NCBI GenBank assembly: GCA_012841735.1
Contig: DUUE01000078.1
Location: forward strand, 1-27,107
DNA length: 27,107 bases
DNA from: Bacillota bacterium
GTDB lineage: Bacteria; Bacillota; Dethiobacteria; Dethiobacterales; Dethiobacteraceae
Reading direction: 5' to 3'
In this document: one piece after another, positions 5,617 to 25,731 of the stretch
Position numbering within the stretch: position 1 is the stretch's first letter
Layout: every line of letters begins with the position of its first letter
The notes under the pieces: model-generated
The model's input: the letters and a program-made list of their open reading frames with translations, nothing else
What the model was told of the DNA's origin: nothing
Database searches by the model: none
Translations under genes and position numbers: made by a program

Positions 5617-6021
5617 TTAATGTTTTTGTAAGACCAGTGCCGCAGCCGAAGCCACGGCATACTCCCGGCTGTGGCTCAGCGACAGCGCCACGGGGGACAG
5701 GGAAAGCTTTTCTGCCCGTTTTGCCGCTTTGCCGGAGAGGTGCACCACCGGTTCTCCCCCGGGCAAAGAGAGTATTTCCACTTCAGTCCAGTTCAGGCTG
5801 CCTATCCCCAGTCCCAGCAGTTTAAACACAGCTTCCTTGGCGGCAAAGCGGGCCGCCAGGTGCCGGGCGGCATTGTCTCTCGCCGCCAGCTGTTCCTGTT
5901 CCCGTGCCGTAAAGAGGCGCTGCAAAAACTGTCGGGGGCGCCTGCCAAATGCCCGGGCAACCCGGTCAATTTCAATAATATCCACCCCGCAGCGCACCGC
6001 CGCCCTGTTTTCCCGGTTCAT
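5617..6021 (-). CDS. acpS: Holo-[acyl-carrier-protein] synthase
   Basis: GVDIIEIDRV, LAARFAAKEAVFK, LSLSHSREYAVA; start at ATG 6021 after AGGAG. Confidence 0.95.
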   Translation of the reverse strand: MNRENRAAVRCGVDIIEIDRVARAFGRRPRQFLQRLFTAREQEQLAARDNAARHLAARFAAKEAVFKLLGLGIGSLNWTEVEILSLPGGEPVVHLSGKAAKRAEKLSLSPVALSLSHSREYAVASAAALVLQKH

Positions 6022-6034
6022 GCTCCTGCCGCCT

Positions 6035-6745
6035 TTACAAAACTGTTTCAAATTTATAGCCGATGCCCCAGACAGTCCGTAAGTATGTTGGATTGGCCGG
6101 GTCTTTCTCTATTTTTTCCCGGATACGCCGGATTAAAACTGTTACCGTGCCCGTATCACCGAAATATTCGTTTCCCCACACCAGATCAAGCAACTGATCC
6201 CGGCTGTAGACCACACCGGGATTATTGGCCAGCACCCACAGCAGGTCAAATTCTTTCGCTGTCAGGTAAACATCTTTGCCGTTCAGTTTCACTTCCCGCG
6301 TTTTACTGTTAATATAGAGGCGCCCGTCATCAAATGTTCCCTGCCGGAGACGGGGAGCAAGCTCCTCGCCGGCGACACGGCGCAGGACGGCCTTAACACG
6401 CAGCGCCAGCTCCGAAGGGCTGAAAGGTTTGGTTACATAGTCATCCACCCCCAGGTTGAAGCCCAGGGCTTTGTCTTCCAACTCGTCCTTGGCGGAAAGA
6501 ATAATAACCGGTGTATTGTCCCCCCTGCTGCGCAGTGCCCGGCAGACTTCAAAGCCGTCCATTTCCGGCATCATTAAGTCAAGCACAATTAAATCCGGAC
6601 GCTCCTCCTCCACTTTCTGGACGGCTTCCAGCCCGTCCGCCGCATGGATCACCTTGTAAGCGTCCTTCCGCAGGCTCTGTTCGACAATGCGCCGGATTTT
6701 CGGCTCATCATCCACAACCAGGATCTTTGTCATTTTACTGCTCAT
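6035..6745 (-). CDS. OmpR/PhoB-family response regulator
   Basis: REC (ILVVDDE, LDLMMPEMDG, DDYVTKPFS) plus winged helix (LTAKEFDLL, IRRIREKIEKDP, TVWGIGYKF). Start overlaps the kinase stop. Confidence 0.95.
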   Translation of the reverse strand: MSSKMTKILVVDDEPKIRRIVEQSLRKDAYKVIHAADGLEAVQKVEEERPDLIVLDLMMPEMDGFEVCRALRSRGDNTPVIILSAKDELEDKALGFNLGVDDYVTKPFSPSELALRVKAVLRRVAGEELAPRLRQGTFDDGRLYINSKTREVKLNGKDVYLTAKEFDLLWVLANNPGVVYSRDQLLDLVWGNEYFGDTGTVTVLIRRIREKIEKDPANPTYLRTVWGIGYKFETVL

Positions 6746-8411
6746 GCTCCTGTCCTCCTTTGCCGGCAAAAGGCAAGTAAATGTAGAATTCGGTACCCCC
6801 GTCCACTTCACTGGACACGCCTACGCGGCCGCCCTGCAACTCGGCCAGCGTTTTCACCAGGGCCAGTCCCAGTCCGGTGCCGCTGCGGCGCCTGCGGGTG
6901 GAACTGTCTCCCTGGCGGAAACGTTCAAAAATGTGGGGCAAAAATTCCGGGGCTATGCCTTCGCCGTTATCTTTGACGGTTATAACGGCAAAATCGTCTT
7001 CCGCTGCCGCCGATACATGGATCTCGCCCCCGTCTTTGGAAAATTTAATGGCATTGGAAATGAGGTTAAAGATCATCTGGCGGATGCGTTCCGGATCCCC
7101 GTACACCAACGGCAGGTTAACCGGGTGAACATGCAGAGTAACATTATTTTGGTAAGCAATAGCCGACATGGTCCGCCGTACCACACGGAAAATATCATTC
7201 AGATCCACCTGTTCCCTCTCCAGGCGCAGGTGACCTGCATCATATTTGGCCATGTCCAGGATATCGCTGATTAGCATCATCAGCTGTTGGGAACTTGTTT
7301 TGATATCCATCAGGTTTTCCCGCTGCTCCTCATTGAGGGGGCCGGGGATCTCATCCAGGAGCAGTTCGGAAAAAGCCACAATGGAGGTAAGGGGTGTTTT
7401 CAGCTCATGGGTAATGGTGGCCATAAACTCGCTTTTCAGACGGTTATTCTCGGAAAGTTTCTGGTTCAGCTGTGACAGGATCTTTTGGCCTTCCTTCAGG
7501 CGCAGATTGGCCACTTCCAGTTCCCTGGTGCGTGTTCTGACTTTACGCTCCATATTCTGGTATAAATCTTTAAATTTCGCCAACATGGCGGAAAATTCCT
7601 GCGCCAGGGTGGCAACTTCCCCGTAGGCGGGCACATCGGCAAAGGATACGTCCAAATTGCCGCTGCCCGCTTGTACCGCCCTGTCCTTGAGCTCCTGCAG
7701 GGGCCGGACTACCAGGCGACCTGTGATTAAAAGCACTGCAGTCAGGATCGCCAGCCCGAGAAGGGAGCTGAAAAGCAGCAGGCTGAAACGGTTCTGACGC
7801 ACCGCAGCCAGGCTGTCCGCCATGGGAATGGTCACACTGATTGCTCCGGCCAGATCACCGACTTGAAAGCCTTCTTTGGGAAAACCGGCCACATCACTAT
7901 CCCCCGCGGGCATGCCGTGGCAATCCAGGCAGTTTTCCTCCGCAAACAGCGGCACAATATGGCGGTAGACCGGCTCCCCGTTCAATTCGGCGGTGCTGTA
8001 TACATGCACTAAAGTGGGGTCGTCTGCAAACTGCAGCAGCGCATCACGTTCAAACCCATCGGGGGCATTTTCCGGGTTGCGGACCTGAAGCCTGGTTTGC
8101 TTGATGCTGTAGTCTGTCCGCTCAGCCAGGATGTCGCCCACCCCTTTGCCCACCCTTGCCGGGTTCAGGTGCTTAAATTCAAAATTGCCTTCACTGTTAT
8201 AATTAATCCAGTCCTGCTGGGAGGCAATATAAGAGCGCACTGCAATAAACTGTTCCGTAATTACTTCCGCCTGGGTGTGCAGCTTGTCCAGTTCACTGTT
8301 ATAGTAAAACCTGCTGCTGACAACATAATCCAGGAGAAGCAGGGCAATAAACAAAAGGCTGATGATAAAAAAATACCGTCCACCCAGGGTATTACGCCGC
8401 GGCAAATACAT
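6735..8411 (-). CDS. Membrane sensor histidine kinase with extracytoplasmic heme-c domain (DUF3365/Tll0287-like), HAMP, HisKA, HATPase
   Basis: Two hydrophobic segments flank a domain with RNPENAPDGFE, CLDCH and GDLAGAISVTIP; H-box THELKTPL; N, G1, F and G2 boxes present. Confidence 0.9.
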   Translation of the reverse strand: MYLPRRNTLGGRYFFIISLLFIALLLLDYVVSSRFYYNSELDKLHTQAEVITEQFIAVRSYIASQQDWINYNSEGNFEFKHLNPARVGKGVGDILAERTDYSIKQTRLQVRNPENAPDGFERDALLQFADDPTLVHVYSTAELNGEPVYRHIVPLFAEENCLDCHGMPAGDSDVAGFPKEGFQVGDLAGAISVTIPMADSLAAVRQNRFSLLLFSSLLGLAILTAVLLITGRLVVRPLQELKDRAVQAGSGNLDVSFADVPAYGEVATLAQEFSAMLAKFKDLYQNMERKVRTRTRELEVANLRLKEGQKILSQLNQKLSENNRLKSEFMATITHELKTPLTSIVAFSELLLDEIPGPLNEEQRENLMDIKTSSQQLMMLISDILDMAKYDAGHLRLEREQVDLNDIFRVVRRTMSAIAYQNNVTLHVHPVNLPLVYGDPERIRQMIFNLISNAIKFSKDGGEIHVSAAAEDDFAVITVKDNGEGIAPEFLPHIFERFRQGDSSTRRRRSGTGLGLALVKTLAELQGGRVGVSSEVDGGTEFYIYLPFAGKGGQEHEQ

Positions 8412-13085: not shown

Positions 13086-13565
13086 CTAACCTGACCCCCC
13101 GAAGAGAGCGGCGCTGAGCCTGTCTATCCCGGCCCGCGAAATATTTTCCACAGTCCGGTCTACCCCTGCAATTTTTTTCACTATGGCCCGTTCAAGGAAA
13201 TTCATTTTTTCAAAATAATAGGCATACCCCAGGTGTTCAACAGCTCTGGCGGCGGCAAGCAACTCTGCGGGAAACGCGGCCTGCAGCTGTGCTGCCACAG
13301 CGGCTGCATTGGCACAGCAGAGAAAAAGGCCCACCTTTTTTTCCAGGAGCTGTGAAAGGTATGCCCGGCAAAAAGTTGCCGTTTCTTTCTGTATTTTCCC
13401 CATGCGGATGGAGCCGCCTATAATCACAGTATCATAACCGGACGGGTCCGCCTGGCATTTCTGCAGGTTGGCCAGTGTAATCCCGCCGGGTGCCTGGGCT
13501 GCCAGCATTTCGGCACATTTCTGCGTACACCCGTGCCTGCCGGCATAAACAATGAGTGTCTTCAC
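13086..13565 (-). CDS. Flavodoxin-domain protein (Flavodoxin_5/HemG-like)
   Basis: KTLIVYAGRHGCTQKCAE, YDTVIIGGSIRMG, KKVGLFLC, MNFLERAIVKK; GTG start at 13565. Confidence 0.85.
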   Translation of the reverse strand: MKTLIVYAGRHGCTQKCAEMLAAQAPGGITLANLQKCQADPSGYDTVIIGGSIRMGKIQKETATFCRAYLSQLLEKKVGLFLCCANAAAVAAQLQAAFPAELLAAARAVEHLGYAYYFEKMNFLERAIVKKIAGVDRTVENISRAGIDRLSAALFGGSG

Positions 13566-13682
13566 CGCTCTCACCCCAAAAGATAATATTAACCGGATAT
13601 TTATTGTAACATTGTTACCACGGGAACACAATATTTCTCCTGCGCTGCCGCAAATAACCGGCGGCAGTTTGCCCGGGGACGC

Positions 13683-13710
13683 AAAAACGCAGGGAAATCC
13701 TGCGTTTTTT
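13683..13710. terminator. Bidirectional intrinsic terminator ending the chemosensory operon
   Basis: AAAAACGCAGG-GAAAT-CCTGCGTTTTT perfect 11-bp repeat with T tracts on both strands, about 45 nt after the HD-GYP stop. Confidence 0.85.
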
Positions 13711-13754
13711 GGCAAATCTGTATTTACCTCTGAAACAGACTGCTGCCCGTTTTG

Positions 13755-14810
13755 TTACAGCATTTTTACAATGCGGATGTTTTTTTCCCTGGCCAGGTCT
13801 ATTATTCCCGCTTTGGTTCTGACAACGGGGCTGGCGGTATCATGCGGGGGGATATAAAGGATTTTTCCTTTTTCACCCGTATTGAAAAGCACTTCCGCCC
13901 CTACATAATAAGTAACAATATTTTTCAGGAAAGTCAAAAGGACCAGCGGATCAAACATTTTCATGCCCACAGTGCTGAACAACTCAAAGGCGGCAAAGGG
14001 CGTCAGACTGTCTTTATACGGGCGGGGAGTGATCATGGCATCGTAAACGTCGGCTACAGCCACAATCCTGGCATAAATGTTGATAAAATGCGGGCCGGCC
14101 TGGTAGGGATAACCGGAACAGTCTATACGCTCATGGTGCAGGAGTGCCACCCGTTTCACATCTTCATCCAGTTGATCTGTCCCGGACAACATTTCATAGC
14201 CAAACACAGTATGTTTCTTTATTTCCTCGTATTCTTCCCTGGTCAGGATGGTCTGCTTGTTGAGAATATGGGCAGGTATCCGGACTTTGCCGATATCGTG
14301 CAGCAGAGCGCTCTGAATCAGTTTTTCAATTTCACCGGAAGAAAGTTTCAGCCATTTGCCTGTCAGCATGGCATAAAAAGCCGTGTTTAAACTGTGGGCA
14401 TATGTATGCTCATCAATGTTTTGCAGCGTGCAGAGAGACTGTACTACCAGTTCTGTTTCCTGGATTTTGCTGTGGACAAAAGTGGAGACTTGGGACAGTT
14501 GTTCTACATCCAGCTTGTTTCCTGCAGCCAGGCTTGTAATTATTTCTTTCAAGTCACTGTGAGATGCGCCGTATTGCCGGTGAAATTCGGACTGTTTCGG
14601 GTTTTTCTGCAGGGAAGCAAAGAAAGGCGGGCCGTCTTCATATTCATACACAAAAACTTCCCGGACCCCGATTTCAATCAGTTTTTCCTGGATATACGGA
14701 TTGATTACCGTATCTTTTACCAGCATTTTAACACCGTTGTCAGCAATAATGTCATGTGCCAGGACATCTCCTGCCATGCAGTCAAAAATGGAAATTTTTC
14801 TTTTTTTCAA
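13755..14810 (-). CDS. HD-GYP c-di-GMP phosphodiesterase
   Basis: TYAHSLN, LLHDIGK, HHERIDCSGYP, IVAVADVYDAM; clostridial-type N-terminal domain; TTG start after AGGAGG. Confidence 0.92.
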   Translation of the reverse strand: MKKRKISIFDCMAGDVLAHDIIADNGVKMLVKDTVINPYIQEKLIEIGVREVFVYEYEDGPPFFASLQKNPKQSEFHRQYGASHSDLKEIITSLAAGNKLDVEQLSQVSTFVHSKIQETELVVQSLCTLQNIDEHTYAHSLNTAFYAMLTGKWLKLSSGEIEKLIQSALLHDIGKVRIPAHILNKQTILTREEYEEIKKHTVFGYEMLSGTDQLDEDVKRVALLHHERIDCSGYPYQAGPHFINIYARIVAVADVYDAMITPRPYKDSLTPFAAFELFSTVGMKMFDPLVLLTFLKNIVTYYVGAEVLFNTGEKGKILYIPPHDTASPVVRTKAGIIDLAREKNIRIVKML

Positions 14811-14850
14811 GGGATACTCTCCTCCTGCTGCCGCTTCTCAGGCGGACAGA

Positions 14851-15249
14851 TTACACCGGTACCAACTCCAGCTCTTCCAGCATTTCAGCAAATTTTTCCG
14901 TATCAATGGGTTTGGCTGCATAGGCATTGCAGCCCAGGGCAAATGCTTCCTTGACATGGTCCGTCGCCGCCAGTGCGGTAGTCATAATAATGATAACACT
15001 TTCTGCAGGCGGGATATTATTCTGTCTTTCCAGGTCCCGTATCGCCTTCAGTACTTTCACACCGTCAACTTTCGGCATCATGATGTCCAGGCAGATGAGA
15101 TCATACGGGTCATTGTCCTTCATGGCCATTACGTAGGCGTCAATTGCTTCCAGGCCGTCCACCACCTGGTCGCATTCACCGTAGCGGGAGAGAAATTTAC
15201 TTAAGAATTTCCTGCTGGCAGGATCGTCTTCTGCGATTAAAATTCTCAT
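14851..15249 (-). CDS. Single-domain response regulator (CheY-like)
   Basis: ILIAEDD, CLDIMMPKVDG, MTTAL, YAAKPI; ATGA overlap with the hybrid kinase. Confidence 0.92.
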   Translation of the reverse strand: MRILIAEDDPASRKFLSKFLSRYGECDQVVDGLEAIDAYVMAMKDNDPYDLICLDIMMPKVDGVKVLKAIRDLERQNNIPPAESVIIIMTTALAATDHVKEAFALGCNAYAAKPIDTEKFAEMLEELELVPV

Positions 15250-17165
15250 GCACCTTCCCCCCTGTTGTCCAATACTTTTTTATAAGTTGCAAACAGATCC
15301 TGGAACCGGGAGAGCAGGGTATCTATCTCTTTGCTGTTGCCTCTCCGTGCCGCCAGTTCTATTTTAAACATGGCATATTTCAGTTCTTCGGCATCCACGG
15401 CAAAAAACAAATCTTTCATTTTATGGGCATACAGCTCCGTACGTTCAAGGTCACAAACGGCGCAGGCGGCCTGCAGCTCCGCCAAAAGTGCTTCCAGCTC
15501 CGGCAGGTGCGCGGCCAGTTCTGTATTTTCCCCCGCTTCTTGCTCCGTCACAACCAGTTCCCCGTCGGCATTCAGGTGCACACGGCCGCGAAAGGCGGCC
15601 TGTCTCCCGGCGCTGAGCACTTTGTCCACCATCTCATACAGTTCTTCCATGCGGACCGGTTTGGGCAGGTATTCGTCCATTCCCAGCGACAGGAAGCGTT
15701 CCCTGTCACCCTGCAGAGCAAAAGCTGTAAGGGCCACAATGGGAGTATGCCTGCCCCCCTTTTCCCGTTCACGGATTCTGGCGGCAGCTTCAATACCGTC
15801 CATCCGGGGCATCTGGATATCCATCAGAATCAAATCGTAGGCTTTGGTGGCATGCATGGCCAGCGCCTCTGTCCCGTTGGCGGCCACATCCACCCGGTGC
15901 CCCCGCTCTTTGAGCAGGCGTGCCACTACCTCCTGGTTGACGCGGTCGTCTTCCACCACCAGGATAGTCCGCGGGCGTGACACCCCGGGCCGCGTGGCAG
16001 GTGCCGGTTCCGTGGGGAGGGAACTTTCTTGTGCCGGCAGAAAAGGCAGGCTGAAAGCAAAAGTACTGCCCACACCCGGCTCGCTGTGTGCCCAGATGCT
16101 GCCGCCCATTTTTTCCACCAGCTGCCTGCTGATTACCAGCCCCAGGCCTGTACCGCCGAATTTCCGCGTGGTCGAACTGTCAACCTGGCTGAAACTGCGA
16201 AAAAGTTTTCCCATCATCTGCGGTTCAATGCCGATCCCCGTATCGGTAACGGCAAACTGCAGGTGCACCTTGCCGTTTACTTCACCGCTTTTATGCACAG
16301 AGAGACTCACATATCCCTCCTGGGTAAATTTAATGGCGTTATGCACCAGGTTGTCAATGACCTGACGCAGGCGTGTCGGATCCCCCGTCAGAAAGTTCGG
16401 GACGTCCATACCCACCTGCTTCCGGAGCTTCAGGCCTTTCTTTTTGGCACTGACCCCATGGGTTTTCATAATTTCCCCGAGCAGCTCCTGCAGGCTGAAA
16501 GGCACTTTTTCAATTTTCATTTTCCCTGCTTCGATTTTGGAAAAATCCAGAATATCGTTAATGATTAAAAGCAGCGAATCGGCACATTTCTTGGCCGTGA
16601 GCAGGTTGTCCCGCTGTTCACTGTTCAGGGGTGTCAGCAGGGTCAGGTCGATCATGCCGATAATGCCGTTGATGGGAGTGCGGATTTCATGGCTCATATT
16701 GGCCAGGAATTCACTTTTAGCCCTGTTGGCGGCCTCCGCCGCCTCTTTTGCTTTCAGGATCTGCTCTTCCGCCTTTTTCTGCCGGGAGATATCACGAAAA
16801 ACAATGACGGCGCCGTTCAGTTCACCCCGGGCATCACGTACGGAAGCGCAGCTGGCTGACAGGTATTTCCCCGTACCGTCCCGGCAGCGCAGCATGGTTC
16901 CGTGCTGCAGTCCCATGGGTTCCCGGGCTGCCATGATTTCTGCCAGCGGCAGCGGCAGAGGTGCATTTGTTTCGGCGTGATACAGGGAAAAGACAGCGGA
17001 CAGCTCCCGCCCCAGCGCCTCTTTTTGGCGCCAGCCGGTGATCAGTTCTGCAGAACTGTTCATGTAGTTGATTATCCCGCGGATATCAGAAACAATTACG
17101 CCGTCGCCCAGACAATTAATAATAGCTTTCATGCGGCCATAATCAACTGCTTGTGCTTCCGCCAT
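15246..17165 (-). CDS. Cytoplasmic hybrid histidine kinase (PAS-HisKA-HATPase-REC-HPt-like)
   Basis: PAS at the N-terminus, FLANMSHEIRTP, NAIKFT, DTGIGI, GGTGLGL, REC (LVVEDD, LMDIQMPRMDG, YLPKP), C-terminal helical segment with AHKMK; no TM segment. Confidence 0.92.
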   Translation of the reverse strand: MAEAQAVDYGRMKAIINCLGDGVIVSDIRGIINYMNSSAELITGWRQKEALGRELSAVFSLYHAETNAPLPLPLAEIMAAREPMGLQHGTMLRCRDGTGKYLSASCASVRDARGELNGAVIVFRDISRQKKAEEQILKAKEAAEAANRAKSEFLANMSHEIRTPINGIIGMIDLTLLTPLNSEQRDNLLTAKKCADSLLLIINDILDFSKIEAGKMKIEKVPFSLQELLGEIMKTHGVSAKKKGLKLRKQVGMDVPNFLTGDPTRLRQVIDNLVHNAIKFTQEGYVSLSVHKSGEVNGKVHLQFAVTDTGIGIEPQMMGKLFRSFSQVDSSTTRKFGGTGLGLVISRQLVEKMGGSIWAHSEPGVGSTFAFSLPFLPAQESSLPTEPAPATRPGVSRPRTILVVEDDRVNQEVVARLLKERGHRVDVAANGTEALAMHATKAYDLILMDIQMPRMDGIEAAARIREREKGGRHTPIVALTAFALQGDRERFLSLGMDEYLPKPVRMEELYEMVDKVLSAGRQAAFRGRVHLNADGELVVTEQEAGENTELAAHLPELEALLAELQAACAVCDLERTELYAHKMKDLFFAVDAEELKYAMFKIELAARRGNSKEIDTLLSRFQDLFATYKKVLDNRGEGA

Positions 17166-17179
17166 AGCTTCCCTCCCTT

Positions 17180-17650
17180 TCAGATTAAAATGGGTTGGGT
17201 AGTAATGGTAACATTACCGGTAGCCACATCCATTTCCACAGTACGGCTTACATCACCGCCCACTGCGGCGCTGCTCACCGTGAGGGACATGTCCGACAGC
17301 ACCCGCATTACCGCTGTCAGATTTTTTTTGCCGATGGCAAAATAATCTTTGCCGCGGGCGGAATCTGCCCCGCCATAAACACCCACCAGCAGTTCCGTGC
17401 GCCGGCAGCCGAATTCACGGCGCATCTTTTCCAGCAGGAGGGGAATTCCGGTGGAGGCATAATAAGCCGGGCGCTGTCCGGCGGCCTCATTATTGGGGGG
17501 TGAAGGCAGGGCAATATGGACCATGCCCGCCGCCCTGTGGAGCCTGCTGTAAGCTGTCACGGCCACACAGGAACCCAGGGCATAAGTTTTCAGTTTGGCG
17601 GCAGTTTCATTTGTGACCGCACATTCTCCGATGCCTACTGTGATTTGCAT
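17180..17650 (-). CDS. cheD: Chemoreceptor glutamine deamidase
   Basis: TYALGSCVAV, GMVHIALP, YGGA, IGKKN, VGGDVSRTV. Confidence 0.9.
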   Translation of the reverse strand: MQITVGIGECAVTNETAAKLKTYALGSCVAVTAYSRLHRAAGMVHIALPSPPNNEAAGQRPAYYASTGIPLLLEKMRREFGCRRTELLVGVYGGADSARGKDYFAIGKKNLTAVMRVLSDMSLTVSSAAVGGDVSRTVEMDVATGNVTITTQPILI

Positions 17651-17654
17651 GTGC

Positions 17655-18716
17655 TCACCTGCTCAAAACCTCCAGTAATAAATCGGGGATCTCGGAGAGC
17701 GAAGCCTGTTTCTCCACCGCTCCGATCTCATAAGCCACTTTGGGCATCCCATAAACCACACTGGACTGCTCGTCCTGCCCGATGGTCCGCGCCCCCCTGC
17801 GCCGCAGCTGCAGCATGCCCCTGGCACCGTCGGCCCCCATGCCTGTCAGGATTATACCCACCGCTTTGTCGCCGGCCACTGCGGCCACCGATTCAAAAAG
17901 GACATCCACGGAAGGACAGTGTCCGTTCACTTTTTCCCCGGCGGCCACTTCGGTGAGATAGCGTCTTCCCTGTTGTTTCAGCCGCAAATGCCGGTTTCCC
18001 GGTGCAATAAACACTTTACCCGCTTCCAGGACATCGCCGCTTTCCGCTTCCTTGACTGTAAAAGCAGTCTGCGCATTAAGGCGTTCCGCAAAAAGACGGG
18101 AAAAAACAGGCGGAATATGCTGGGCAATGAGGATGGCGGGAATATCTGCAGGCAAATGCTTCAGCAGATACGCAAGCGCCTCGGTGCCGCCGGTGGAAGA
18201 ACCGATGGCAATTACCTGCCGGCTGTATGTTGAAGTGCCGGGCGGGCTCTGCAGCTGCACCGCCTGTGCGGGTGCGCCTGCGACTCTGATTTTGCTGTTT
18301 GCCGCGATTTTGATTTTCACTGCCAGGTCGGCCAGAAAATGCTGTATATGCCGGCGGGAGGAAAGGTCCGGTTTGCTTAAAAACTCCACCGCCCCGGCGT
18401 TTAAGGCGTCAAAAACGGCCCCGCTGGTGGTGCTGATGACAATTACCGGCAGCGGGTACTGGGGCAGCAGCCGCCGGATAAACTCAATCCCGTTCATTTT
18501 GGGCATTTCAATATCACAGGTCATGACATCGGGACGATAAGCCAGAATTTTGTCCCTGGCATCATACGGGTCCATGGCAGTGGCCACAACTTCAATCTGG
18601 CTGTCCTGTGCCAATCCCCTCACAATAATTTCACGGAAAACAAGACTGTCATCAACGACTAAGACCTTAATTTTGCGCTGTGCTGTTGACATTGCGGCAC
18701 TCTCCCGACCTGTCAT
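17655..18716 (-). CDS. cheB: Chemotaxis methylesterase with REC domain
   Basis: REC (VLVVDDS, CDIEMPKMNG) and catalytic Ser/His/Asp motifs (GSSTGG, AQHIP, LTGMGADG). Start 18716 (ATGA overlap) or 18692. Confidence 0.96.
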   Translation of the reverse strand: MTGRESAAMSTAQRKIKVLVVDDSLVFREIIVRGLAQDSQIEVVATAMDPYDARDKILAYRPDVMTCDIEMPKMNGIEFIRRLLPQYPLPVIVISTTSGAVFDALNAGAVEFLSKPDLSSRRHIQHFLADLAVKIKIAANSKIRVAGAPAQAVQLQSPPGTSTYSRQVIAIGSSTGGTEALAYLLKHLPADIPAILIAQHIPPVFSRLFAERLNAQTAFTVKEAESGDVLEAGKVFIAPGNRHLRLKQQGRRYLTEVAAGEKVNGHCPSVDVLFESVAAVAGDKAVGIILTGMGADGARGMLQLRRRGARTIGQDEQSSVVYGMPKVAYEIGAVEKQASLSEIPDLLLEVLSR

Positions 18717-19546
18717 GTGCGTGTTATTTTTCTGTAGACGGCGGGCCGTACATATTGTAAAGACGTAGTTTCCCGGTTTAAGGATTCAGAATGGCCGATA
18801 AAAAGATAGCCGCCGTCCTCCAGGAGATGATCAAATTTGTTAACCAGCTCAATTTTGGTATCGTTATCAAAATAAATCATGACATTCCTGCAGAAAATCG
18901 TATGGAATTTGCGGCGGAACGGGAAAACTCGCTCCACCAGGTTGAATGTCCTGTAGATTACATTGTTTTTTATGCGGTCTTTAACGATAACATTGCCTGC
19001 GTCATACCGTTCAAAATAAGCGAGCTTCCAGGAGGCCGGCAGGGGTGCAATTCTTTCATTGCTGTAAACACCTTTGCGAGCAATCTCCAGCGCCTGCCGG
19101 GAAATATCCGTAGCCAGGATCCTGGTATCCCACAGTGCGGCCTCCGCCCCGAAAAATTCATCTATCACCATGGCCAGGGTATATGCTTCCTCGCCGGTGG
19201 AACAGGCGGCGCACCAGACACGCAGGTCACGGTCGGCAATGCGTTCCTTCAGGTAAGGCAGTACTTCATCACGAAAGAAGTAAAAATGATCCGCTTCCCG
19301 CATGAAAAATGTATGATTTGTCGTAATCCTGTTCAGGAGGTTAATGACGGCTTCCCCGGTGGTATCCGAGACCAGGTCGTCAATATATTCTGTGAACGAG
19401 CGGTAGTTTTTGGCTGCAAGCAGGTTGTGCAATCTGCCTGTGAGCAACGTCTTTTTTTCCGGTTTCAGGTAGATACCGTAATTGTCTTTAATGAAAGCTG
19501 CCAGTCTCTGAAATTCTTTGTCGGTTATATTTCTTAAGCTTTCCAT
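18713..19546 (-). CDS. cheR: Chemotaxis methyltransferase
   Basis: ITTNHTFFMRE, WCAACSTGEEAYT, ILATDIS, IFCRNVMIYF, GHSESL. Confidence 0.96.
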   Translation of the reverse strand: MESLRNITDKEFQRLAAFIKDNYGIYLKPEKKTLLTGRLHNLLAAKNYRSFTEYIDDLVSDTTGEAVINLLNRITTNHTFFMREADHFYFFRDEVLPYLKERIADRDLRVWCAACSTGEEAYTLAMVIDEFFGAEAALWDTRILATDISRQALEIARKGVYSNERIAPLPASWKLAYFERYDAGNVIVKDRIKNNVIYRTFNLVERVFPFRRKFHTIFCRNVMIYFDNDTKIELVNKFDHLLEDGGYLFIGHSESLNRETTSLQYVRPAVYRKITRT

Positions 19547-19565
19547 CCCTGCACCACCTGCGGCC

Positions 19566-19595
19566 GGGGCCGTTCTGCCCCTGCCAAACGGCCCC
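19566..19595. other. Intercistronic GC-rich stem-loop between mcp and cheR
   Basis: GGGGCCGTT-N12-AACGGCCCC perfect 9-bp stem with no U tract. Confidence 0.6.
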
Positions 19596-19600
19596 TTGCT

Positions 19601-21445
19601 TTACGAGTATTTGCCGAACTCACTGTCACTGAGACTGTCCTTTGGCGCATTATCCTTGTCCGCGGCAAGGTTTTCGTCATCGGGCAGCCTGATTTCAGCA
19701 CCGGCGGCCGCCTCCTGCAGAACAGTCTTTTCCACATCCTCCGGTGCCGGTTCAGTCTCGCGCTGTTCTTCCGTCTGTACCTTTCTGCGCAGCAGCCGCC
19801 CGGCAAGTTTTTTCAGCCCTGCTTTTACCCCCCGTTTTTTCGTCTCGTCCGTCACAGCCTTCTCCCCGCTCACATCATCGGCTACGGCAGTCTCTCCGGC
19901 TTTCAGCGTAAAACGTGCCACCTGGTTTTTCAACAGTTCTGCCTGGCCTGACAACTCTTCGCTGGCGGCCGCCGTTTCCTCGGAAGTGGCGGAATTGCTC
20001 TGGGTGACGTCGGAAACAAGCACCACCCCGTCATTAATCTGGCTGATGGCGGAAGCCTGTTCATTGGAGGCCACCGCTATCCCGGCCATGATGTTGGCCA
20101 CTTCAGTAATTCCGCCAATGATTTTTTCCAGGGCTTCGGCCGTCTGGCCGGCAATACGCTTGCCTTCCGTAGCTTTTTGTTTGGACAGTTCAATCAGTTC
20201 GGCAGTTTCTTTGGCAGCATCGGCTGAGCGTGCCGCCAGGTTGCGCACCTCTTCCGCCACCACGGCGAAACCTTTTCCGTACTGGCCCGCCCTGGCAGCT
20301 TCAATGGCCGCATTCAGCGACAGGATATTTGTCTGGAAGGCGATTTCATCAATAACCCTGATAATGCGCGAAATATTGGCGGAGGAAATGTTGATCTCTT
20401 CCATGGCCATCAGCAGATCCTGCATCTCTGTATCTCCCTGCCGGGCATCGTTTTTGGCCGCATCGGCAACCTCACTGGCTTTGTTTGCATTTTCCGCATT
20501 TTGTTTTGTCTGGGTCAGCACCTCTTCCAGCGAGGCAGTCAGTTCTTCTATCGAACTGGCCTGTTCCGTCGCCCCCTGGGAAAGTTCCATACTGGAGTCG
20601 GACACCTGCTTGGCCCCGGAAGCAACCTGTTCGGCGGCAGTCCAGATATTGGTGAGGGCCAAATTCATATTATCGGTCATTTTCTTAAATGCGCCGGCCA
20701 GGATGCCCACTTCATCCTTGGTATCAATATCAATGGTTATATCGAGCCTGCCCTCCGCCAGGGAGTTGGCGGCTGCAACCAGTTTATTGATGGGCTTGCT
20801 GATATGACGGGAAATAATAAATCCCAAAACAACAGCCAGCGCGATGGCCACAAAGACCCAGGTCCGCAAAGTGTTTGCCACTACGGTCGCCTGCTCCCTG
20901 TTATTTGTCGCATTGGCCTCGGCATCAGCCAGTGCCATTTCCATCAGTTTCTGCAAAGCCACCTGCTGCACAAGAGCTGCCTGCTCCATTTCACCGTGCA
21001 GGAGCTCAATAGCTTCCGCATCATTGTTTTGTATGGCAAGATTAAATAATTTTTCCACCTCAATGTTATAAGCGGCTCTTTTCTTAATAAAATCATCAAA
21101 AGCCTGCTCGATAAGTCTTTGGTGCTTCAGTTTGCTGAATTCGGCAGCCAGGACTGTAATCTGGGCATTCCATTTATGGACATTGTCAAGGTGTTTTTTA
21201 ATCTCGTCATAATCTTCAGCCAGAATCATATCCCGTGCATCTGCATGCATCTGATTGAAGAGAGAGAGCATATTGGAAGCCTGGTAAATGGGCAGGGCCT
21301 GTTTTTCATAAACTTCGGCCACTCCTGCGGCAAGGTCGTTGATATTTTGCACTCCCAGATAGCCTACAAGGCCTGTGACGGCTGCCACCAGCAGGAAGCA
21401 AAACAGAATCTTGGTAAACAACCGGCGGTTTGTAAACAGTTTCAT
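19601..21445 (-). CDS. Methyl-accepting chemotaxis protein (TM-four-helix-bundle-type sensor-TM-HAMP-signalling domain)
   Basis: Two TM segments, HAMP ([20 protein letters not shown]), hairpin tip [37 protein letters not shown], long C-terminal tail ending EFGKYS. Confidence 0.96.
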
Positions 21446-21457
21446 TGCCTTCCCCTC

Positions 21458-21952
21458 CTACAATTGGGATAACTGTTCCACTTCATCGTCCGTCAGGATT
21501 TTATTGACATCCAGTATCAGCTTTACCTCTTCACCGACACTGGCAATTCCTTTAATATAGCGGTTGTAAGTTTTATTGATTTCCGGCGGATCCGCAATAT
21601 CTTCGTCAGGTATGGAGAGGACTTCGGCAACACTGTCCACAACCAGCCCCATGGTAATCCCGCTCATTTCCACAATAATCACACAGGTCCTGTCATTGTA
21701 ATGGCGGAAAGGTTTCCGGAAACGCAGCCGTACATCCATAATGGGAATAATGCGGCCGCGCAGATTAATGATCCCGCGAATATAGTCGGGTACTTCCGGT
21801 ACTTCCGTCAGCGGCTGGATACCAATGATCTCCGTCACATAACGCAGTTCAATGCCGTAGGAATCACTGCCGATTAAAAAAGTCAGGTATTTGCCCTGCA
21901 GTGTATCTTCTTCCTCCTCCTGATACCCCTGAAAACTGACATATTCGGCCAT
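21458..21952 (-). CDS. cheW: Chemotaxis coupling protein
   Basis: YLTFLIGSDSYGI, VPDYIRGIINLRGRIIPIMD, GLVVDSVAEV. Confidence 0.96.
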   Translation of the reverse strand: MAEYVSFQGYQEEEEDTLQGKYLTFLIGSDSYGIELRYVTEIIGIQPLTEVPEVPDYIRGIINLRGRIIPIMDVRLRFRKPFRHYNDRTCVIIVEMSGITMGLVVDSVAEVLSIPDEDIADPPEINKTYNRYIKGIASVGEEVKLILDVNKILTDDEVEQLSQL

Positions 21953-21990
21953 ATGCAAACTCCTTCCGCTTACTTACTCGTAACTGTGCG

Positions 21991-24042
21991 TTACGCCACA
22001 AAACCGCTCACATCAAGAATGAGGCTGATACTGCCGTCTCCCAGCAGGGTGCAGCCGCCAATGCCCCTGATTCTTCTGTTCTGCAGATAGCGGGGCAGGG
22101 CTTTCACCACCACTTCCTGCTGCCCGAGCAAATCGTCCACAAAGAGACAGAAAGGCTTGTCCTCATAATCCACCAGGATAAAGATACCATCCGCCAGGTC
22201 TGTTACTTCCGTCGGGATCCGGAAAAATTCATGCAGGCGGATAATGGGGTAACACTGGCCCCGGACCATGAGCATTTCATTCCCGTCAGTATCCGTCACC
22301 AGTTTATGGTTCTCCAGACGAACCGACTCTTTGATGGCACTGATGGGCAGGGTATAACGCGCCTGGCCCACATTCAGGTTCATGCCGTCAATGATGGCCA
22401 TGGTGAGCGGCAGTTTCAGCGTAAAAGTTGTCCCCTGGCCGCTCACACTGTCCACTGTGACGGAGCCGCCCACACTTTCCAGGTTATTCACCACCACATC
22501 CATGCCTACGCCCCGCCCGGAGAATTCCGTTATCTGCTCACTGGTGGAAAAACCGGGGAGAAAAATCAGCTGGAAGATCTCCTTGTCCGTCATGTCCGCC
22601 GCCGGCTTGGGCAGCAAATTGTTTTTTTGCGCCCGCCTGAGTATTTTATCCTTGTCAAGCCCTCTGCCGTCATCACGCACCATAATCAGCACATGGTTGC
22701 CCACATTGCGTGCTTCCAGTGTTACCGTCCCCGTCCTGTCCTTGCCGGCTGCCAGGCGTTCAGCCGTCGTTTCCAGTCCGTGGTCAATGGCGTTGCGGAT
22801 TAAATGCATCAACGGGTCGGAAATATGTTCAATAATGTTTTTGTCAACTTCCGTGTCCTCCCCAATTAACTGCAGCTTCACCTCTTTTTGCAATTTCTTG
22901 CCCATATCCCGCACAATGCGCTGCATTTTCAGGAAAGTATTGGCCAGCGGCACCATGCGCACAGACATGACCAGGTCCTGAATTTCACTGGTGATTTTAT
23001 GCAACTGCCTGGCCGCCTGCCGGAAATTTTCCAGTTCCAGCCCGGCCAAGTCCGGGTTCTGCACCACCATGGCTTCGGCAATCACCATTTCACCCACCAG
23101 GTCCATCAGCTTGTCCAGTTTGGCCACACTGACGCTGATTATGCCCTGGCCGGCTGTCGCCACGGCAGCTGTGTCCCGCCCCCTGGCCGTCTCCCCGTTT
23201 TCGCCGGATGCGGCGGCCGCCGTTTCCGCCTGCGTTTGGGGTGCCGCAGCACCGCTTTTGCGCGCGGCAAAGGCGGTCACATCCAGCTCCCGGAATTCCA
23301 GCCTTTCCAGGAACAGCACATCGTTAAAAAACTTACGCACCTCTTCCATGGGCCTTACGGTGAGCACGCCGACAGTAAAGCCGTGCTCGCGGATAAAGGC
23401 CGCCGTTTCATCATTCTCCAGGATATCGGCAGGATGGTAATACAGGTCGTCCACCAGCTCCTGCAGGTTGTGAATGACGCCGTACGCACGGATATTTTCC
23501 ATCTCACAGCCTTCCTCGTAATAGAGCACCGCCTCATATGCCGCCTGTTTCCCGGCAGGCCGTGCAGGCTGCCCGCCATCTGCGGCAGGTTGTGCGGCGG
23601 ACGCCTCCTGCTCCTCTTTTACATCGCCGTTGGCAACTTTTAACTCTGCAAGGAAGGCTGTGATCGCCGCCAGCAGTCCGGCTGCATCCCCGTCCGCCGG
23701 CTGCTTGTTTTGAATTTTATTCAGTTCAGCCTGGATAAAGTCAATGCCCGACAAGATGAGATCGGACAAAGCGGCGTAATCTGCCTGCTGCGGCTGTGCT
23801 TCACGCAGATAGTAAAACAAATCCTCCATCCTGTGGGCCAGGTCCGTCAGATTGGCCAGCATCATCATGGCGGCAGACCCTTTGATGGTATGCATGATGC
23901 GAAAAACTTCATTGACGGCGTCTGCGGAATAGCTGCCGGTCTTTTCGCTTTCCAGCACCACATTCTCCAGCTGTTCAATATTCTGCAGAGTCTCAAAAAC
24001 AAAAACTTCAAGCATGGAGTCGTTGATGTACTCATCAACCAT
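21991..24042 (-). CDS. cheA: Chemotaxis histidine kinase
   Basis: P1 FRIMHTIKGS, P2-like region, dimerisation KLDKLMDLVGE, P4 HLIRNAIDHG/GFST/SGRGVGMDVV, P5 CheW-like domain. Confidence 0.97.
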   Translation of the reverse strand: MVDEYINDSMLEVFVFETLQNIEQLENVVLESEKTGSYSADAVNEVFRIMHTIKGSAAMMMLANLTDLAHRMEDLFYYLREAQPQQADYAALSDLILSGIDFIQAELNKIQNKQPADGDAAGLLAAITAFLAELKVANGDVKEEQEASAAQPAADGGQPARPAGKQAAYEAVLYYEEGCEMENIRAYGVIHNLQELVDDLYYHPADILENDETAAFIREHGFTVGVLTVRPMEEVRKFFNDVLFLERLEFRELDVTAFAARKSGAAAPQTQAETAAAASGENGETARGRDTAAVATAGQGIISVSVAKLDKLMDLVGEMVIAEAMVVQNPDLAGLELENFRQAARQLHKITSEIQDLVMSVRMVPLANTFLKMQRIVRDMGKKLQKEVKLQLIGEDTEVDKNIIEHISDPLMHLIRNAIDHGLETTAERLAAGKDRTGTVTLEARNVGNHVLIMVRDDGRGLDKDKILRRAQKNNLLPKPAADMTDKEIFQLIFLPGFSTSEQITEFSGRGVGMDVVVNNLESVGGSVTVDSVSGQGTTFTLKLPLTMAIIDGMNLNVGQARYTLPISAIKESVRLENHKLVTDTDGNEMLMVRGQCYPIIRLHEFFRIPTEVTDLADGIFILVDYEDKPFCLFVDDLLGQQEVVVKALPRYLQNRRIRGIGGCTLLGDGSISLILDVSGFVA

Positions 24043-24061
24043 CCGGTTCCGCCTCCTTTCC

Positions 24062-24418
24062 TTACTGGATTTTCTGCAGTGTCTTGATTACATGGTCCTC
24101 TTTAAACGGCTTAATAATAAATGATTTGGCACCGCTTAAAATTGCATCCTTGACCATGTTTTCCTGACCCATGGCGGACACCATCACCACTTTCGCATTG
24201 GGATCCACTTTCATGATGGCCTTCAGCGCCTCCAGGCCGTTCATTTCCGGCATGGTAATATCAAGGGTGACGATATCCGGTTTGCACTCCAGGTATTTTT
24301 TTACCGCCGCCGCACCGTTTTCCGCTTCGCCCACAATTTCATAGCCGTGGTTCAAAAGCATATTTTTTATCGCCATCCTCATAAATGCAGCATCATCAAC
24401 GATTAAAACTCTTGCCAT
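24062..24418 (-). CDS. cheY: Chemotaxis response regulator (Bacillus-type sequence)
   Basis: MARVLIVDDAAFMRM, VTLDITMPEMNG, VSAMGQ, FIIKPF. Confidence 0.93.
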   Translation of the reverse strand: MARVLIVDDAAFMRMAIKNMLLNHGYEIVGEAENGAAAVKKYLECKPDIVTLDITMPEMNGLEALKAIMKVDPNAKVVMVSAMGQENMVKDAILSGAKSFIIKPFKEDHVIKTLQKIQ

Positions 24419-25026
24419 TTTCTCACTCTCTCTTCCCTTCTGTCAGTTATAAAAGAATTTAACAAGACTTGTAATGTGGATGCCACATAGTTTTTCAGGG
24501 AATAAGCATATTTCTGAAAACGCCATGTCAGACAGGCGGCATGAAAAAAGCCAAGAATAATTTCCGCTATTTGGGCGGCCGACAATTCGCAGGACAAAAG
24601 CCCGGCCTGCTGGGCTTTGGCGGCCAGGTCCCGGAGCGCCGTCAGGCGCCCGAAATAGATCTTTTTGATTTTCTCACGAAAATCGTCTTCACAGGCCAAC
24701 ACATCATACGACTGGGTGATTGCCGTTATCTGCGGGTAATTCTCATAATACTCGGCATAAGTTACTACATAATAAAAAATGGCCTGCAGGTAATCTTTCT
24801 GCTGCAGTGATGATGCGCTGATATCACTGTCATACTGGGCATAAAAATCAAGCACGGCATGCAGCAAATCCACTTTCTTCGGAAAATGCTTAAAGACAGC
24901 CGCTTCCGTAATGCCCTGCCTTTTGGCCACCTCCCTGGTCGAGATACCTTTAATGCCGTATTCATTGATTACATCAATGGTCGTCAATACGATCCTTTCT
25001 TTCCGGTGGAGAAATGAATAGCCCAT
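24403..25026 (-). CDS. TetR/AcrR-family transcriptional regulator
   Basis: N-terminal HTH GIKGISTREVAKRQGITEAAVFKHFPKK; 3' end overlaps the cheY start by 16 nt; RBS GGAGG. Confidence 0.92.
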   Translation of the reverse strand: MGYSFLHRKERIVLTTIDVINEYGIKGISTREVAKRQGITEAAVFKHFPKKVDLLHAVLDFYAQYDSDISASSLQQKDYLQAIFYYVVTYAEYYENYPQITAITQSYDVLACEDDFREKIKKIYFGRLTALRDLAAKAQQAGLLSCELSAAQIAEIILGFFHAACLTWRFQKYAYSLKNYVASTLQVLLNSFITDRREERVRKWQEF

Positions 25027-25040
25027 ATAACCTCCAAGTG

Positions 25041-25058
25041 AGTAAGCATTAACTTACT
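25041..25058. promoter_or_regulatory. Palindromic operator, probable TetR autoregulatory site
   Basis: AGTAAG-CATTAA-CTTACT between the sigma28 -10 box and the tetR RBS. Confidence 0.6.
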
Positions 25059-25062
25059 GTTT

Positions 25063-25089
25063 TTATCGGCACCAAAGGTTAAAACTTTA
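25063..25089 (-). promoter_or_regulatory. sigma28 (FliA/SigD) promoter for the tetR-che operon
   Basis: Minus strand TAAAGTTT (25089-25082) - 11 nt - GCCGATAA (25070-25063): exact match to the extended sigma28 consensus. Confidence 0.9.
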
Positions 25090-25123
25090 CCTTATACAGG
25101 GCAGTTTTTCTGCTTTTAGGCAG

Positions 25124-25147
25124 AAAAAAACCCGCTTTTGCGGGTTT
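25124..25147 (-). terminator. Intrinsic terminator after the HD hydrolase
   Basis: AAACCCGC-AAAA-GCGGGTTT followed by more T's on the minus strand, just after stop 25153. Confidence 0.85.
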
Positions 25148-25152
25148 ATGCG

Positions 25153-25731
25153 CTACAGTTCACCCTGAAGGCCGATCTCTGCGGCTACCGTCTGCATCCC
25201 CTTGATTGTTTCGGCAATAATTTCATCCAGTTCCATCCCCAGCAGCCGGGCGCCTTCGGCAATTACCTCCCTGTTCACGCCGGCGGCAAAGCCTTTCTGC
25301 TTCCATTTTTTCCTGACCGATTTTACTTCCGTATCCAGAATACTTTTACTGGGCCGCATCAGTGCGGTGGCGGCTATGAGCCCCGTCAGCTCGTCAATGG
25401 TATATAAAACTTTCTCCATACGCTCCACCGGCTCCACAGCGGAACATATTTTCCAGCCGTGACTGACAACCGCACGGATATAATCTTCCGGCCAGCCGTG
25501 CTCCTGCAGGATTTCGCCGGTTTTTGTGCAGTGCTCGTCCGGGTAACGTTCATAATCCAGGTCATGAATCAGCCCGATTACACCCCACTTTTCCACGTCT
25601 TCCTGAAAGAGGGCGGCAAAATGCCGCATGACCGCTTCCACGGCCAGGGCATGCTTAATGAGACTGTCATTCTTGTTATACTCTGTCAGCAGCCTGTAAG
25701 CTTCTTCCCTTGTCGGTACCTTTCCCTGCAT
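25153..25731 (-). CDS. HD-superfamily (HDIG-like) metal-dependent hydrolase
   Basis: IKHALAVE, GLIHDLDYE, AVVSHG, YTIDELTGLI; RBS GAGGTGAGG. Confidence 0.88.
   Translation of the reverse strand: MQGKVPTREEAYRLLTEYNKNDSLIKHALAVEAVMRHFAALFQEDVEKWGVIGLIHDLDYERYPDEHCTKTGEILQEHGWPEDYIRAVVSHGWKICSAVEPVERMEKVLYTIDELTGLIAATALMRPSKSILDTEVKSVRKKWKQKGFAAGVNREVIAEGARLLGMELDEIIAETIKGMQTVAAEIGLQGEL

Follow-up and report, generated by a model that had tools for sequence, protein, structure and literature searches.

The DNA analysed here, which we call the window, is a 27,107-nucleotide (nt) contig (C457) of a 2.33-Mb metagenome-assembled genome (MAG; G000, 466 contigs, 92% complete, 6.4% contamination) from a flagellated, uncultured, Dethiobacter-related member of the Bacillota found in anaerobic digesters. 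It carries an eleven-gene chemotaxis (che) operon that opens with the gene of a TetR-family repressor and closes with those of a PAS hybrid histidine kinase, a single-domain receiver (REC) and a predicted HD-GYP phosphodiesterase. We consider it reasonably probable, if well short of certain, that an accessory cassette has here become the sole flagellar chemotaxis system, taking the place of the che cluster that belongs to the flagellar locus in this family, and that the kinase-REC-HD-GYP tail is a side branch of that system. The original prediction had seen in this block a second chemosensory pathway beside a native F1-type system. With a single CheA in this genome and in both of its congeners, and only cheY left at the syntenic che site, the block instead appears to be the organism's only chemotaxis system, with no second pathway beside it, though the remaining system is out of the ordinary.

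The CheA dimerisation-domain model has a single match in G000, as it does in each of the two other genomes of its genus (G001 and G002, 93% and 97% complete) and in most of the family's genomes. The flagellar locus of G000 was reconstructed over three contigs: C38 holds fliG ... flgE-motA-motB-fliL-fliP ... flhA-flhF; C101 holds flhF-flhG, a YcgR-like PilZNR-PilZ gene, fliA, rod genes, fapA, fliM, fliN and a CheC-like gene; and C428 holds cheY between the FliN-type C-terminal part of fliY and an ACT-domain gene, with POR next. At the locus, as read from these three contigs, neither cheA nor cheW, cheB or cheR was found. In other genomes of the family, including MAGs labelled Dethiobacter, the corresponding stretch reads fliM-fliN-CheC-like-fliY-cheW-mcp-cheA-cheY-cheC-cheD-cheB-cheR-ACT-POR. 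Because G000, G001 and G002 all have cheY alone between fliY and ACT-POR, and in G001 and in G002 one contig spans the whole stretch, the family cluster has evidently been deleted on both sides of its cheY. The CheY that survives there, CheY(A), shows 93-96% identity within the genus; its counterpart in G004 is 75% identical to it, and the CheY of the cassette, CheY(B), shares 47-48% identity with it. Nor is the deletion confined to one genus, since two digester MAGs of the family (in the L162/L163 set) show it too: UBA3936 reads fliY-cheY-ACT-POR with no che cluster, and AS10tlH2TH_59 is apparently without even cheY.

Two further genomes carry other combinations. G015 has both systems, the family's flagellar-locus cluster and the cassette. 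In the sister genus (G003; locus L027, contig C44, 3095-15036), cheA-cheW-mcp-cheR-cheB-cheD of the cassette lies directly behind an ancestral-type cheY within the flagellar locus, with an HD-GYP gene after it, which looks like replacement in situ and not like a separate operon. For the lineage that gave rise to E. coli, it was previously inferred that one chemosensory class displaced another while the old CheY survived; in the present case the stages lie within one family of uncultured anaerobes, from the ancestral state (most genomes) through the presence of both systems (G015) and in-situ replacement (G003) to replacement with promoter rewiring (the genus of G000), and the series offers a sequence set for testing how a foreign CheA fits a resident CheY and switch complex.

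A sigma28 promoter of the FliA/SigD type, TAAAGTTT-N11-GCCGATAA, lies on the minus strand at 25063-25089, 5' of the first gene, and is an exact match, read directly, to the criterion applied, namely TAAA(GTTT)-N11/N15-GCCGATAA boxes at the correct spacing. Both boxes are conserved in G001 and G002, with a divergent spacer between them, and in E. coli the FliA sites ahead of flgMN and yhjH, among others, look similar (PMC4183435). G000 has a fliA gene (249.6 bits against an NCBIfam cut-off of 189.6), and the strict pattern TAAA-N15-GCCGATA occurs eight times genome-wide against about 0.9 expected. Three of these eight matches lie upstream of flgM, of flgN-flgK-flgL and of the che operon, and the operon would on this basis belong with flgM and flgN-K-L to the late flagellar regulon. 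One more, on C260, has downstream of it only a 53-aa open reading frame (ORF) with no Pfam match. We left the remaining four out of the promoter count. Long ORFs enclose three of them (two on C167, one on C431), and the last, on C390, is upstream of a transketolase-type gene whose profile match starts mid-domain. The C167 motifs (L108, positions 2466 and 4367) are near-identical, fall within the 3' parts of two paralogous ORFs of 533-589 aa without Pfam matches, and are probably a coding repeat and not promoters.

Four nt past the -10 box begins a palindrome, AGTAAG-N6-CTTACT (25041-25058, minus strand, read directly), that overlaps the expected transcription start and is probably the TetR operator. 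It occurs once in the 2.33-Mb genome and is kept in both congeners, and a GTAAG...TTAC-related site lies directly upstream of the ribosome-binding site at every tetR-headed cluster examined. Here the ribosome-binding site, GGAGG, reads at 25035-25031 ahead of the tetR ATG. The repressor (24403-25026, minus strand) joins a TetR_N domain (38.5 bits) to a YsiA-like TetR_C_4 domain (30.7 bits).

Outside the genus, the nearest CheAs (50-56% identity) belong to Mobilitalea, Herbinix, Desulfosporosinus, Paenibacillus and Bacillota MAGs, and several of these loci, in Mobilitalea, Herbinix and other MAGs, share the frame tetR-cheY-cheA-cheW-mcp-cheR-cheB-(PAS)n hybrid kinase-REC. TetR orthologues with 39-46% identity head the cassette at seven other loci; elsewhere its CheYs are 61-73% identical to CheY(B) and its hybrid kinase orthologues 45-48% identical to the one in the window, and CheD is found among the cassette loci only in this family (G003, 49% identity). 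These Lachnospiraceae-like genomes encode three to four CheAs each. A perfect TTGACA-N17-TATAAT is present at four of the seven other tetR-headed loci (in OH_ MAGs and one Mobilitalea MAG), and a sigma28 motif at none of the seven. We take the cassette to be normally an accessory one, sigma70-driven and TetR-gated, which apparently acquired sigma28 only in the genus of G000 and kept its operator there. Of the whole block, whose conservation it was first suggested to survey, the frame from tetR to the hybrid kinase and REC recurs at several loci of other genera, and the sigma28 promoter at none of the seven tetR-headed ones. In a CheA tree the window type and the family's flagellar-locus type are split by a branch with 100/100 support, G001 and G002 are sisters, and the order of lineages within the cassette clade is unresolved. 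In the Lachnospiraceae-like cassettes a Dabb (stress-responsive A/B barrel) gene follows the single REC instead of an HD-GYP gene (L125 19540-19842, L127 19812-20153, L133 14630-14935), and in L156 a Spo0E-like small ORF (646-909) lies between cheA and cheW.

The receptors bear on the kind of system that the cassette encodes. The cytoplasmic part of the window receptor (residues 11-262) aligns without gaps to residues 269-520 of E. coli Tsr, and the stretch so matched falls 14 residues short of that in the 44H receptor Tm1143 of T. maritima, so the receptor is of class 36H; a second receptor, on contig C316 of G000, aligns gaplessly to it. Receptors of the 36H class go with the F7 class of chemosensory systems (PMC9321776), and the gene order matches the ancestral F7 order, cheY-cheA-cheW-aer2-cheR-cheD-cheB (PMC7184735), except that cheB and cheD are swapped; the cluster is without cheC, cheX and cheV. 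The closest solved relative of its CheB is that of Salmonella (292 bits), and comparison of CheR favours neither side. We could not show that the family's flagellar-locus receptor is 44H. Its alignments to Tsr and to Tm1143 disagreed on the difference in length, and we therefore call the family cluster only CheC/CheD-containing and F1-like, and claim no class for it.

Regardless of class, the layout of the operon is clear, and on layout the original description stands. The ORF listing and a Pfam domain search give eleven genes, all on the minus strand from 25026 to 13755, in the order tetR-cheY-cheA-cheW-mcp-cheR-cheB-cheD-PAS hybrid kinase-REC-HD-GYP, with no gap longer than 54 nt (junctions, from tetR to HD-GYP, of -16, 19, 32, 12, 54, -4, 4, 14, -4 and 40 nt). 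Behind tetR come CheY(B) (24062-24418, with Asp53); CheA (21991-24042), a canonical Hpt-P2-dimerisation-HATPase-CheW protein with P1 His51 and domains P2, P3, P4 and P5; CheW (21458-21958); a transmembrane receptor of the form 4HB-HAMP-MCPsignal (19601-21445); the methyltransferase CheR (18713-19546); the methylesterase CheB, with a REC and a catalytic domain (17655-18716); and the receptor deamidase CheD (17180-17650). Intrinsic terminators bound the whole, judged by comparing folds with those of shuffled sequences: one at 25128-25147 on the minus strand (-13.1 kcal/mol, z -3.4, then U7), which ends the HD-domain gene at 25153-25731, and one at 13683-13709, also on the minus strand (-16.5 kcal/mol, z -4.8, with a U-run), which closes the operon. 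The strong terminators and the exact sigma28 promoter claimed at the outset were thus both borne out, and the proposed gating by TetR now has a conserved, operator-like palindrome as its predicted site. Pfam analysis of the eleven genes likewise agrees that flagellar genes are absent from the block (13755-25026), as are cheC, cheX and cheZ; CheC-like and FliY genes are encoded elsewhere in G000, at the flagellar locus. Full-text literature searches found no paper on a TetR-headed che operon or on a che/hybrid kinase/REC/HD-GYP layout in Clostridia, in keeping with the earlier impression that the full architecture had not been characterised.

The working of such a system can be sketched. In this genus the ancestral flagellar-locus che cluster has been deleted except for the cheY behind fliM-fliN-fliY, and the change of the cassette promoter to sigma28 would have brought the cassette into the late flagellar regulon. 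In a cell that has completed its hook-basal body, FliA would transcribe the che operon, subject to a ligand-dependent veto by TetR, which is predicted to bind the start-site palindrome and whose C-terminal domain is of the acyl-CoA-binding YsiA type. The sole CheA would then phosphorylate the retained motor-type CheY, the cassette CheY or both, leading to motor switching; the receptors would be adapted by CheR, CheB and CheD, and phosphate would be removed by FliY and the CheC-like proteins of the flagellar locus. For its part, the cytoplasmic PAS hybrid kinase may sense an internal cue and phosphorylate the single receiver, either directly or by way of the REC and the HPt-like tail that it carries itself. 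The receiver, in turn, may in this species tune the HD-GYP protein, lowering cyclic di-GMP (c-di-GMP) and relieving a brake formed by the YcgR-like PilZ protein encoded beside fliA, an arrangement that would parallel the sigma28-driven PdeH/YcgR pair of E. coli. Of all this, the genes present, the promoter with its conservation, the synteny, the pattern of loss and the recurring linkage are observed, and the phosphotransfer steps, the action of REC on HD-GYP and the brake are inferred. Taken to its full extent, the account would be of an independent replacement of a chemosensory system in the Bacillota, with its intermediates still visible: a TetR-gated sigma70 accessory cassette with 36H receptors would have been rewired to sigma28, have taken flagellar control through the retained CheY, and have brought with it a PAS kinase-receiver branch coupling chemosensing to c-di-GMP breakdown and a YcgR-type motor brake, with G003 showing the in-situ replacement and the congeners the decay of HD-GYP. 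We offer this fuller version tentatively, as a possibility on which we would not yet build.

The hybrid kinase of the side branch (15246-17165, minus strand) is cytoplasmic, with the domain order PAS-HisKA-HATPase-REC and a 125-aa tail, and carries His159, Asp449 in its REC and His581 in the tail. An AlphaFold model of the tail has four helices (pLDDT about 90), and the ten best PDB matches in a fold search are all HPt proteins, with weak E-values (0.0045-0.055; TM 0.5-0.7); phmmer of the PDB with the tail returned chance helical matches only. His581 (YAHKMK) sits at the expected phospho-histidine position and is present in the three species of the genus, and the next helix, FKIELAARRGN, is invariant in the orthologues compared. 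Used alone as a query, the kinase recovers generic hybrid kinases from many phyla at no more than 48% identity, and the search is uninformative on orthology. The single receiver (14851-15249, minus strand; 132 aa) has all its phospho-acceptor residues (Asp8/9, Asp55, Lys113) and represents a family of its own, one that is strongly conserved.

The HD-GYP protein (13755-14810, minus strand; 351 aa) stands alone and has intact motifs: HD at 171-172, HHE at 225-227 and GYP at 233-235. In a 40-sequence alignment H139, H171, D172, H200, H225, H226, E227, the GYP motif and D254 are invariant in the family, and with them all the metal-binding residues. The catalytic core of its model (pLDDT 90.7) best matches the active HD-GYP enzyme PmGH (4mcw; E 7e-10, 33% identity); residues 1-56 form a small beta/alpha lobe and residues 306-350 a beta lobe, neither of them REC or PAS. 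The homologues (6374 matches scored) form a large clostridial family of stand-alone proteins of roughly 347 residues, and six of the seven nearest ones with usable context adjoin che, MCP or kinase-REC genes. The kinase-REC-HD-GYP linkage recurs in other Clostridia, in L152 (tetR-kinase-REC-HD-GYP-MCP), L153 (cheA-cheW-mcp-kinase-REC-REC-HPt-HD-GYP), L156 (cheA...cheB-kinase-REC-HD-GYP-tetR-kinase-REC) and in part L155; the HPt-like gene of L153, between REC and HD-GYP, is a stand-alone one (7614-7982). Because a 1743-nt DNA contig from a public metagenome run covers 13684-15426 (HD-GYP, REC and the 3' end of the kinase gene) with one mismatch, the junction of the three genes is not an assembly artefact of the G000 MAG alone. 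G000 also appears to encode the partners needed for a c-di-GMP circuit, with seven GGDEF, two EAL and six HD_5 domain matches. The YcgR-like PilZNR-PilZ gene (C101:1401-2045, L121) lies between flhG and fliA, inside the flagellar operon, and its product is a plausible c-di-GMP target and a candidate c-di-GMP-dependent motor brake. A complex prediction for REC and HD-GYP scored 0.00, below the mark, and weighs neither for nor against binding.

Several observations count against the replacement account, or against parts of it. Every genome of the genus is a fragmented MAG, and a second CheA is conceivable. The CheA is about equally distant from the CheAs of E. coli and T. maritima, and the F7-like character of the system is a resemblance in receptor class and gene order, not a class assignment by MiST models. 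The kinase tail scores 18.2 bits against a Pfam Hpt cut-off of 24.6 (E 0.003), and the position of His581 is Ser or Asn in the orthologues of L125, L127 and L130, at 45-48% identity. The HD-GYP protein contains no receiver domain, with no Pfam REC match even at E 10. Lastly, the HD-GYP gene is reduced in G001 and G002 to remnants of 126 nt and 47 nt with one common deletion breakpoint, all the other genes of the operon being kept there at 76-96% identity. Since HD-GYP has decayed in both congeners, c-di-GMP breakdown cannot be the essential output of the operon, and the HD-GYP enzyme is accessory and dispensable. A His-Asp-His-Asp relay, as originally envisaged, is possible in this species, but the orthologues suggest that it is not the conserved function of the tail domain: what survives of that proposal is the genomic link between kinase, REC and HD-GYP, which recurs in other Clostridia, and what is weakened is the HPt step.

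The strongest alternative is that two independent systems share one transcript: the che genes would serve chemotaxis, and kinase-REC-HD-GYP would be a self-contained two-component module that exchanges no phosphate with CheA in either direction and is co-expressed with late flagellar genes to keep c-di-GMP low, much like PdeH in E. coli. The E. coli phosphodiesterase under sigma28 is a precedent (PMC4183435), L152 has tetR-hybrid kinase-REC-HD-GYP without che core genes, and L156 has a second tetR-kinase-REC copy. We nonetheless regard this explanation as unlikely. The single receiver is kept inside che cassettes that have no hybrid kinase (cheB-REC in L133, cheB-REC-cheA in L138, cheW-REC in L135), and may well communicate with the Che core as well; across genera it is more conserved (67-69% identity) than CheA (50-56%), which argues for the same link. 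The receiver is a good candidate for the node between chemoreceptor signalling and c-di-GMP.

A second alternative is a two-kinase cascade resembling the Che3 system of R. centenum, in which either CheA phosphorylates the REC of the kinase or the two sides have the single REC as a common phosphate sink, and the kinase sets the level of phosphorylated REC, the real output in all lineages, with HD-GYP or Dabb interchangeable downstream. In R. centenum CheA3 acts on the CheS3 receiver and only CheS3 phosphorylates CheY3 (PMC3868531), and the hybrid kinase-REC pair behind cheB is indeed conserved across genera while the next gene varies (HD-GYP here and in L153 and L156, Dabb in L125, L127 and L133). 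Yet the kinase REC is C-terminal here and N-terminal in CheS3, and the motor in the genus of G000 would still need a CheA-to-CheY route, and we judge such a cascade improbable. The weakest account makes the operon a second, non-flagellar ("alternative cellular function", ACF) pathway whose output is c-di-GMP breakdown via CheA or the hybrid kinase, REC, HPt, REC and HD-GYP while a separate native system runs the motor; for all that the cassette is one of three to four Che systems and sigma70-driven in other Clostridia, that HD-GYP genes of the same family adjoin che or kinase-REC genes in several lineages, and that the block itself is without a flagellar gene, it is very doubtful in the face of one CheA per genome in three genomes, the deletion at the syntenic site, a sigma28 promoter of the kind that flgM and flgN also have, and the loss of HD-GYP from both congeners with the rest of the operon kept.

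The nearest published analogues of the system are the F7/F6 takeover, R. centenum Che3, RpfC/RpfG, Wsp and PdeH/YcgR. In RpfC/RpfG of Xanthomonas, a hybrid kinase of the form HisKA-HATPase-REC-HPt feeds a REC-HD-GYP protein, and the window is alike in encoding, beside a receiver and an HD-GYP enzyme, a hybrid kinase whose REC is followed by an HPt-like tail. It differs in that receiver and HD-GYP are separate proteins, the N- and C-terminal lobes of the HD-GYP protein being non-REC, that the sensor is a cytoplasmic PAS domain and not a membrane sensor of DSF, and that the HPt histidine is not conserved among orthologues; with no N-terminal receiver fused to HD-GYP, the enzyme is not an RpfG-type regulator. 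Wsp of Pseudomonas is a non-flagellar pathway whose output is the REC-GGDEF cyclase WspR, phosphorylated by a CheA-REC hybrid. The likeness to Wsp lies in the genomic coupling of a chemosensory gene set to a c-di-GMP enzyme. A Wsp-like (ACF) pathway was considered and rejected, for the CheA here is canonical and without a REC, the enzyme is a phosphodiesterase, also without a REC, and the genome has no other CheA.

Closer to our reading is the takeover of F6 output by F7 systems in gamma- and beta-proteobacteria (Ortega et al. 2020, PMC7184735), along with the switches of F class in Campylobacterota (PMC9321776). The 36H receptor and the order cheY-cheA-cheW-mcp-cheR-(cheB/cheD) are shared with these cases, as are the rise of an accessory system to sole system and the retention of the displaced flagellar system's CheY. 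The present case is one in the Bacillota, in which the displaced system has CheC and CheD, sits in the flagellar locus and is not F6, and in which neither CheZ nor a STAS/phosphatase module is present and TetR, hybrid kinase, REC and HD-GYP are attached. The Che3 system of R. centenum (CheA3, CheS3, CheY3; PMC3868531) controls cyst formation and not the motor, has its CheS3 receivers at the N-terminus, and has no TetR, sigma28 promoter or HD-GYP. In E. coli, FliA drives yhjH (pdeH) and ycgR, both class 3 (PMC4183435), so a FliA promoter ahead of a c-di-GMP phosphodiesterase and a YcgR-type PilZ brake within the flagellar regulon are common to both organisms. PdeH, however, is a stand-alone EAL protein with its own promoter, and the HD-GYP gene here lies at the end of a che operon behind a kinase-receiver pair and has been lost in sister species.

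What is new here is the sole-system status of the operon, the retained ancestral cheY, a move from sigma70 to sigma28 that left the TetR operator in place, and the loss of HD-GYP now under way. The comparison also draws attention to a widespread and uncharacterised clostridial cassette made up of TetR, a Che core, a PAS hybrid kinase and a highly conserved single receiver, often with HD-GYP. For annotation the lesson is a practical one: the pathway encoded by the block should, in this organism, be called neither "second" nor "alternative".

Some smaller features of the window and its genome remain to be recorded. The 54-nt gap between mcp and cheR (19547-19600) contains a strong GC-rich hairpin (-27 kcal/mol, z -2.5) with no U-tract, which may be an mRNA-stability or processing element separating expression of the receptor from that of the adaptation enzymes. 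The gap between REC and HD-GYP has no significant structure relative to shuffled sequences and contains a ribosome-binding site, and terminator-like matches inside cheD and the kinase gene were dismissed, being without U-tracts. After the HD-GYP gene comes a Flavodoxin_5 gene (13086-13715); read from the listed TTG at 13715 the gene would overlap the terminator of the operon, and its true start is therefore probably further in. An unrelated metagenome contig, L157, likewise has a Flavodoxin_5 gene (5820-6392), in the order cheR-cheB-HD-GYP-flavodoxin. Two near-identical 285-aa short MCP-signal proteins, on the separate small contigs C136 and C85 of G000, suggest strain heterogeneity or duplication in the MAG. 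At 6735-8411 in the window, and unrelated to the che operon, lies the gene of a histidine kinase that combines a HAMP domain with an extracytoplasmic domain of the Tll0287-like (DUF3365) type and has a neighbouring regulator as its partner.

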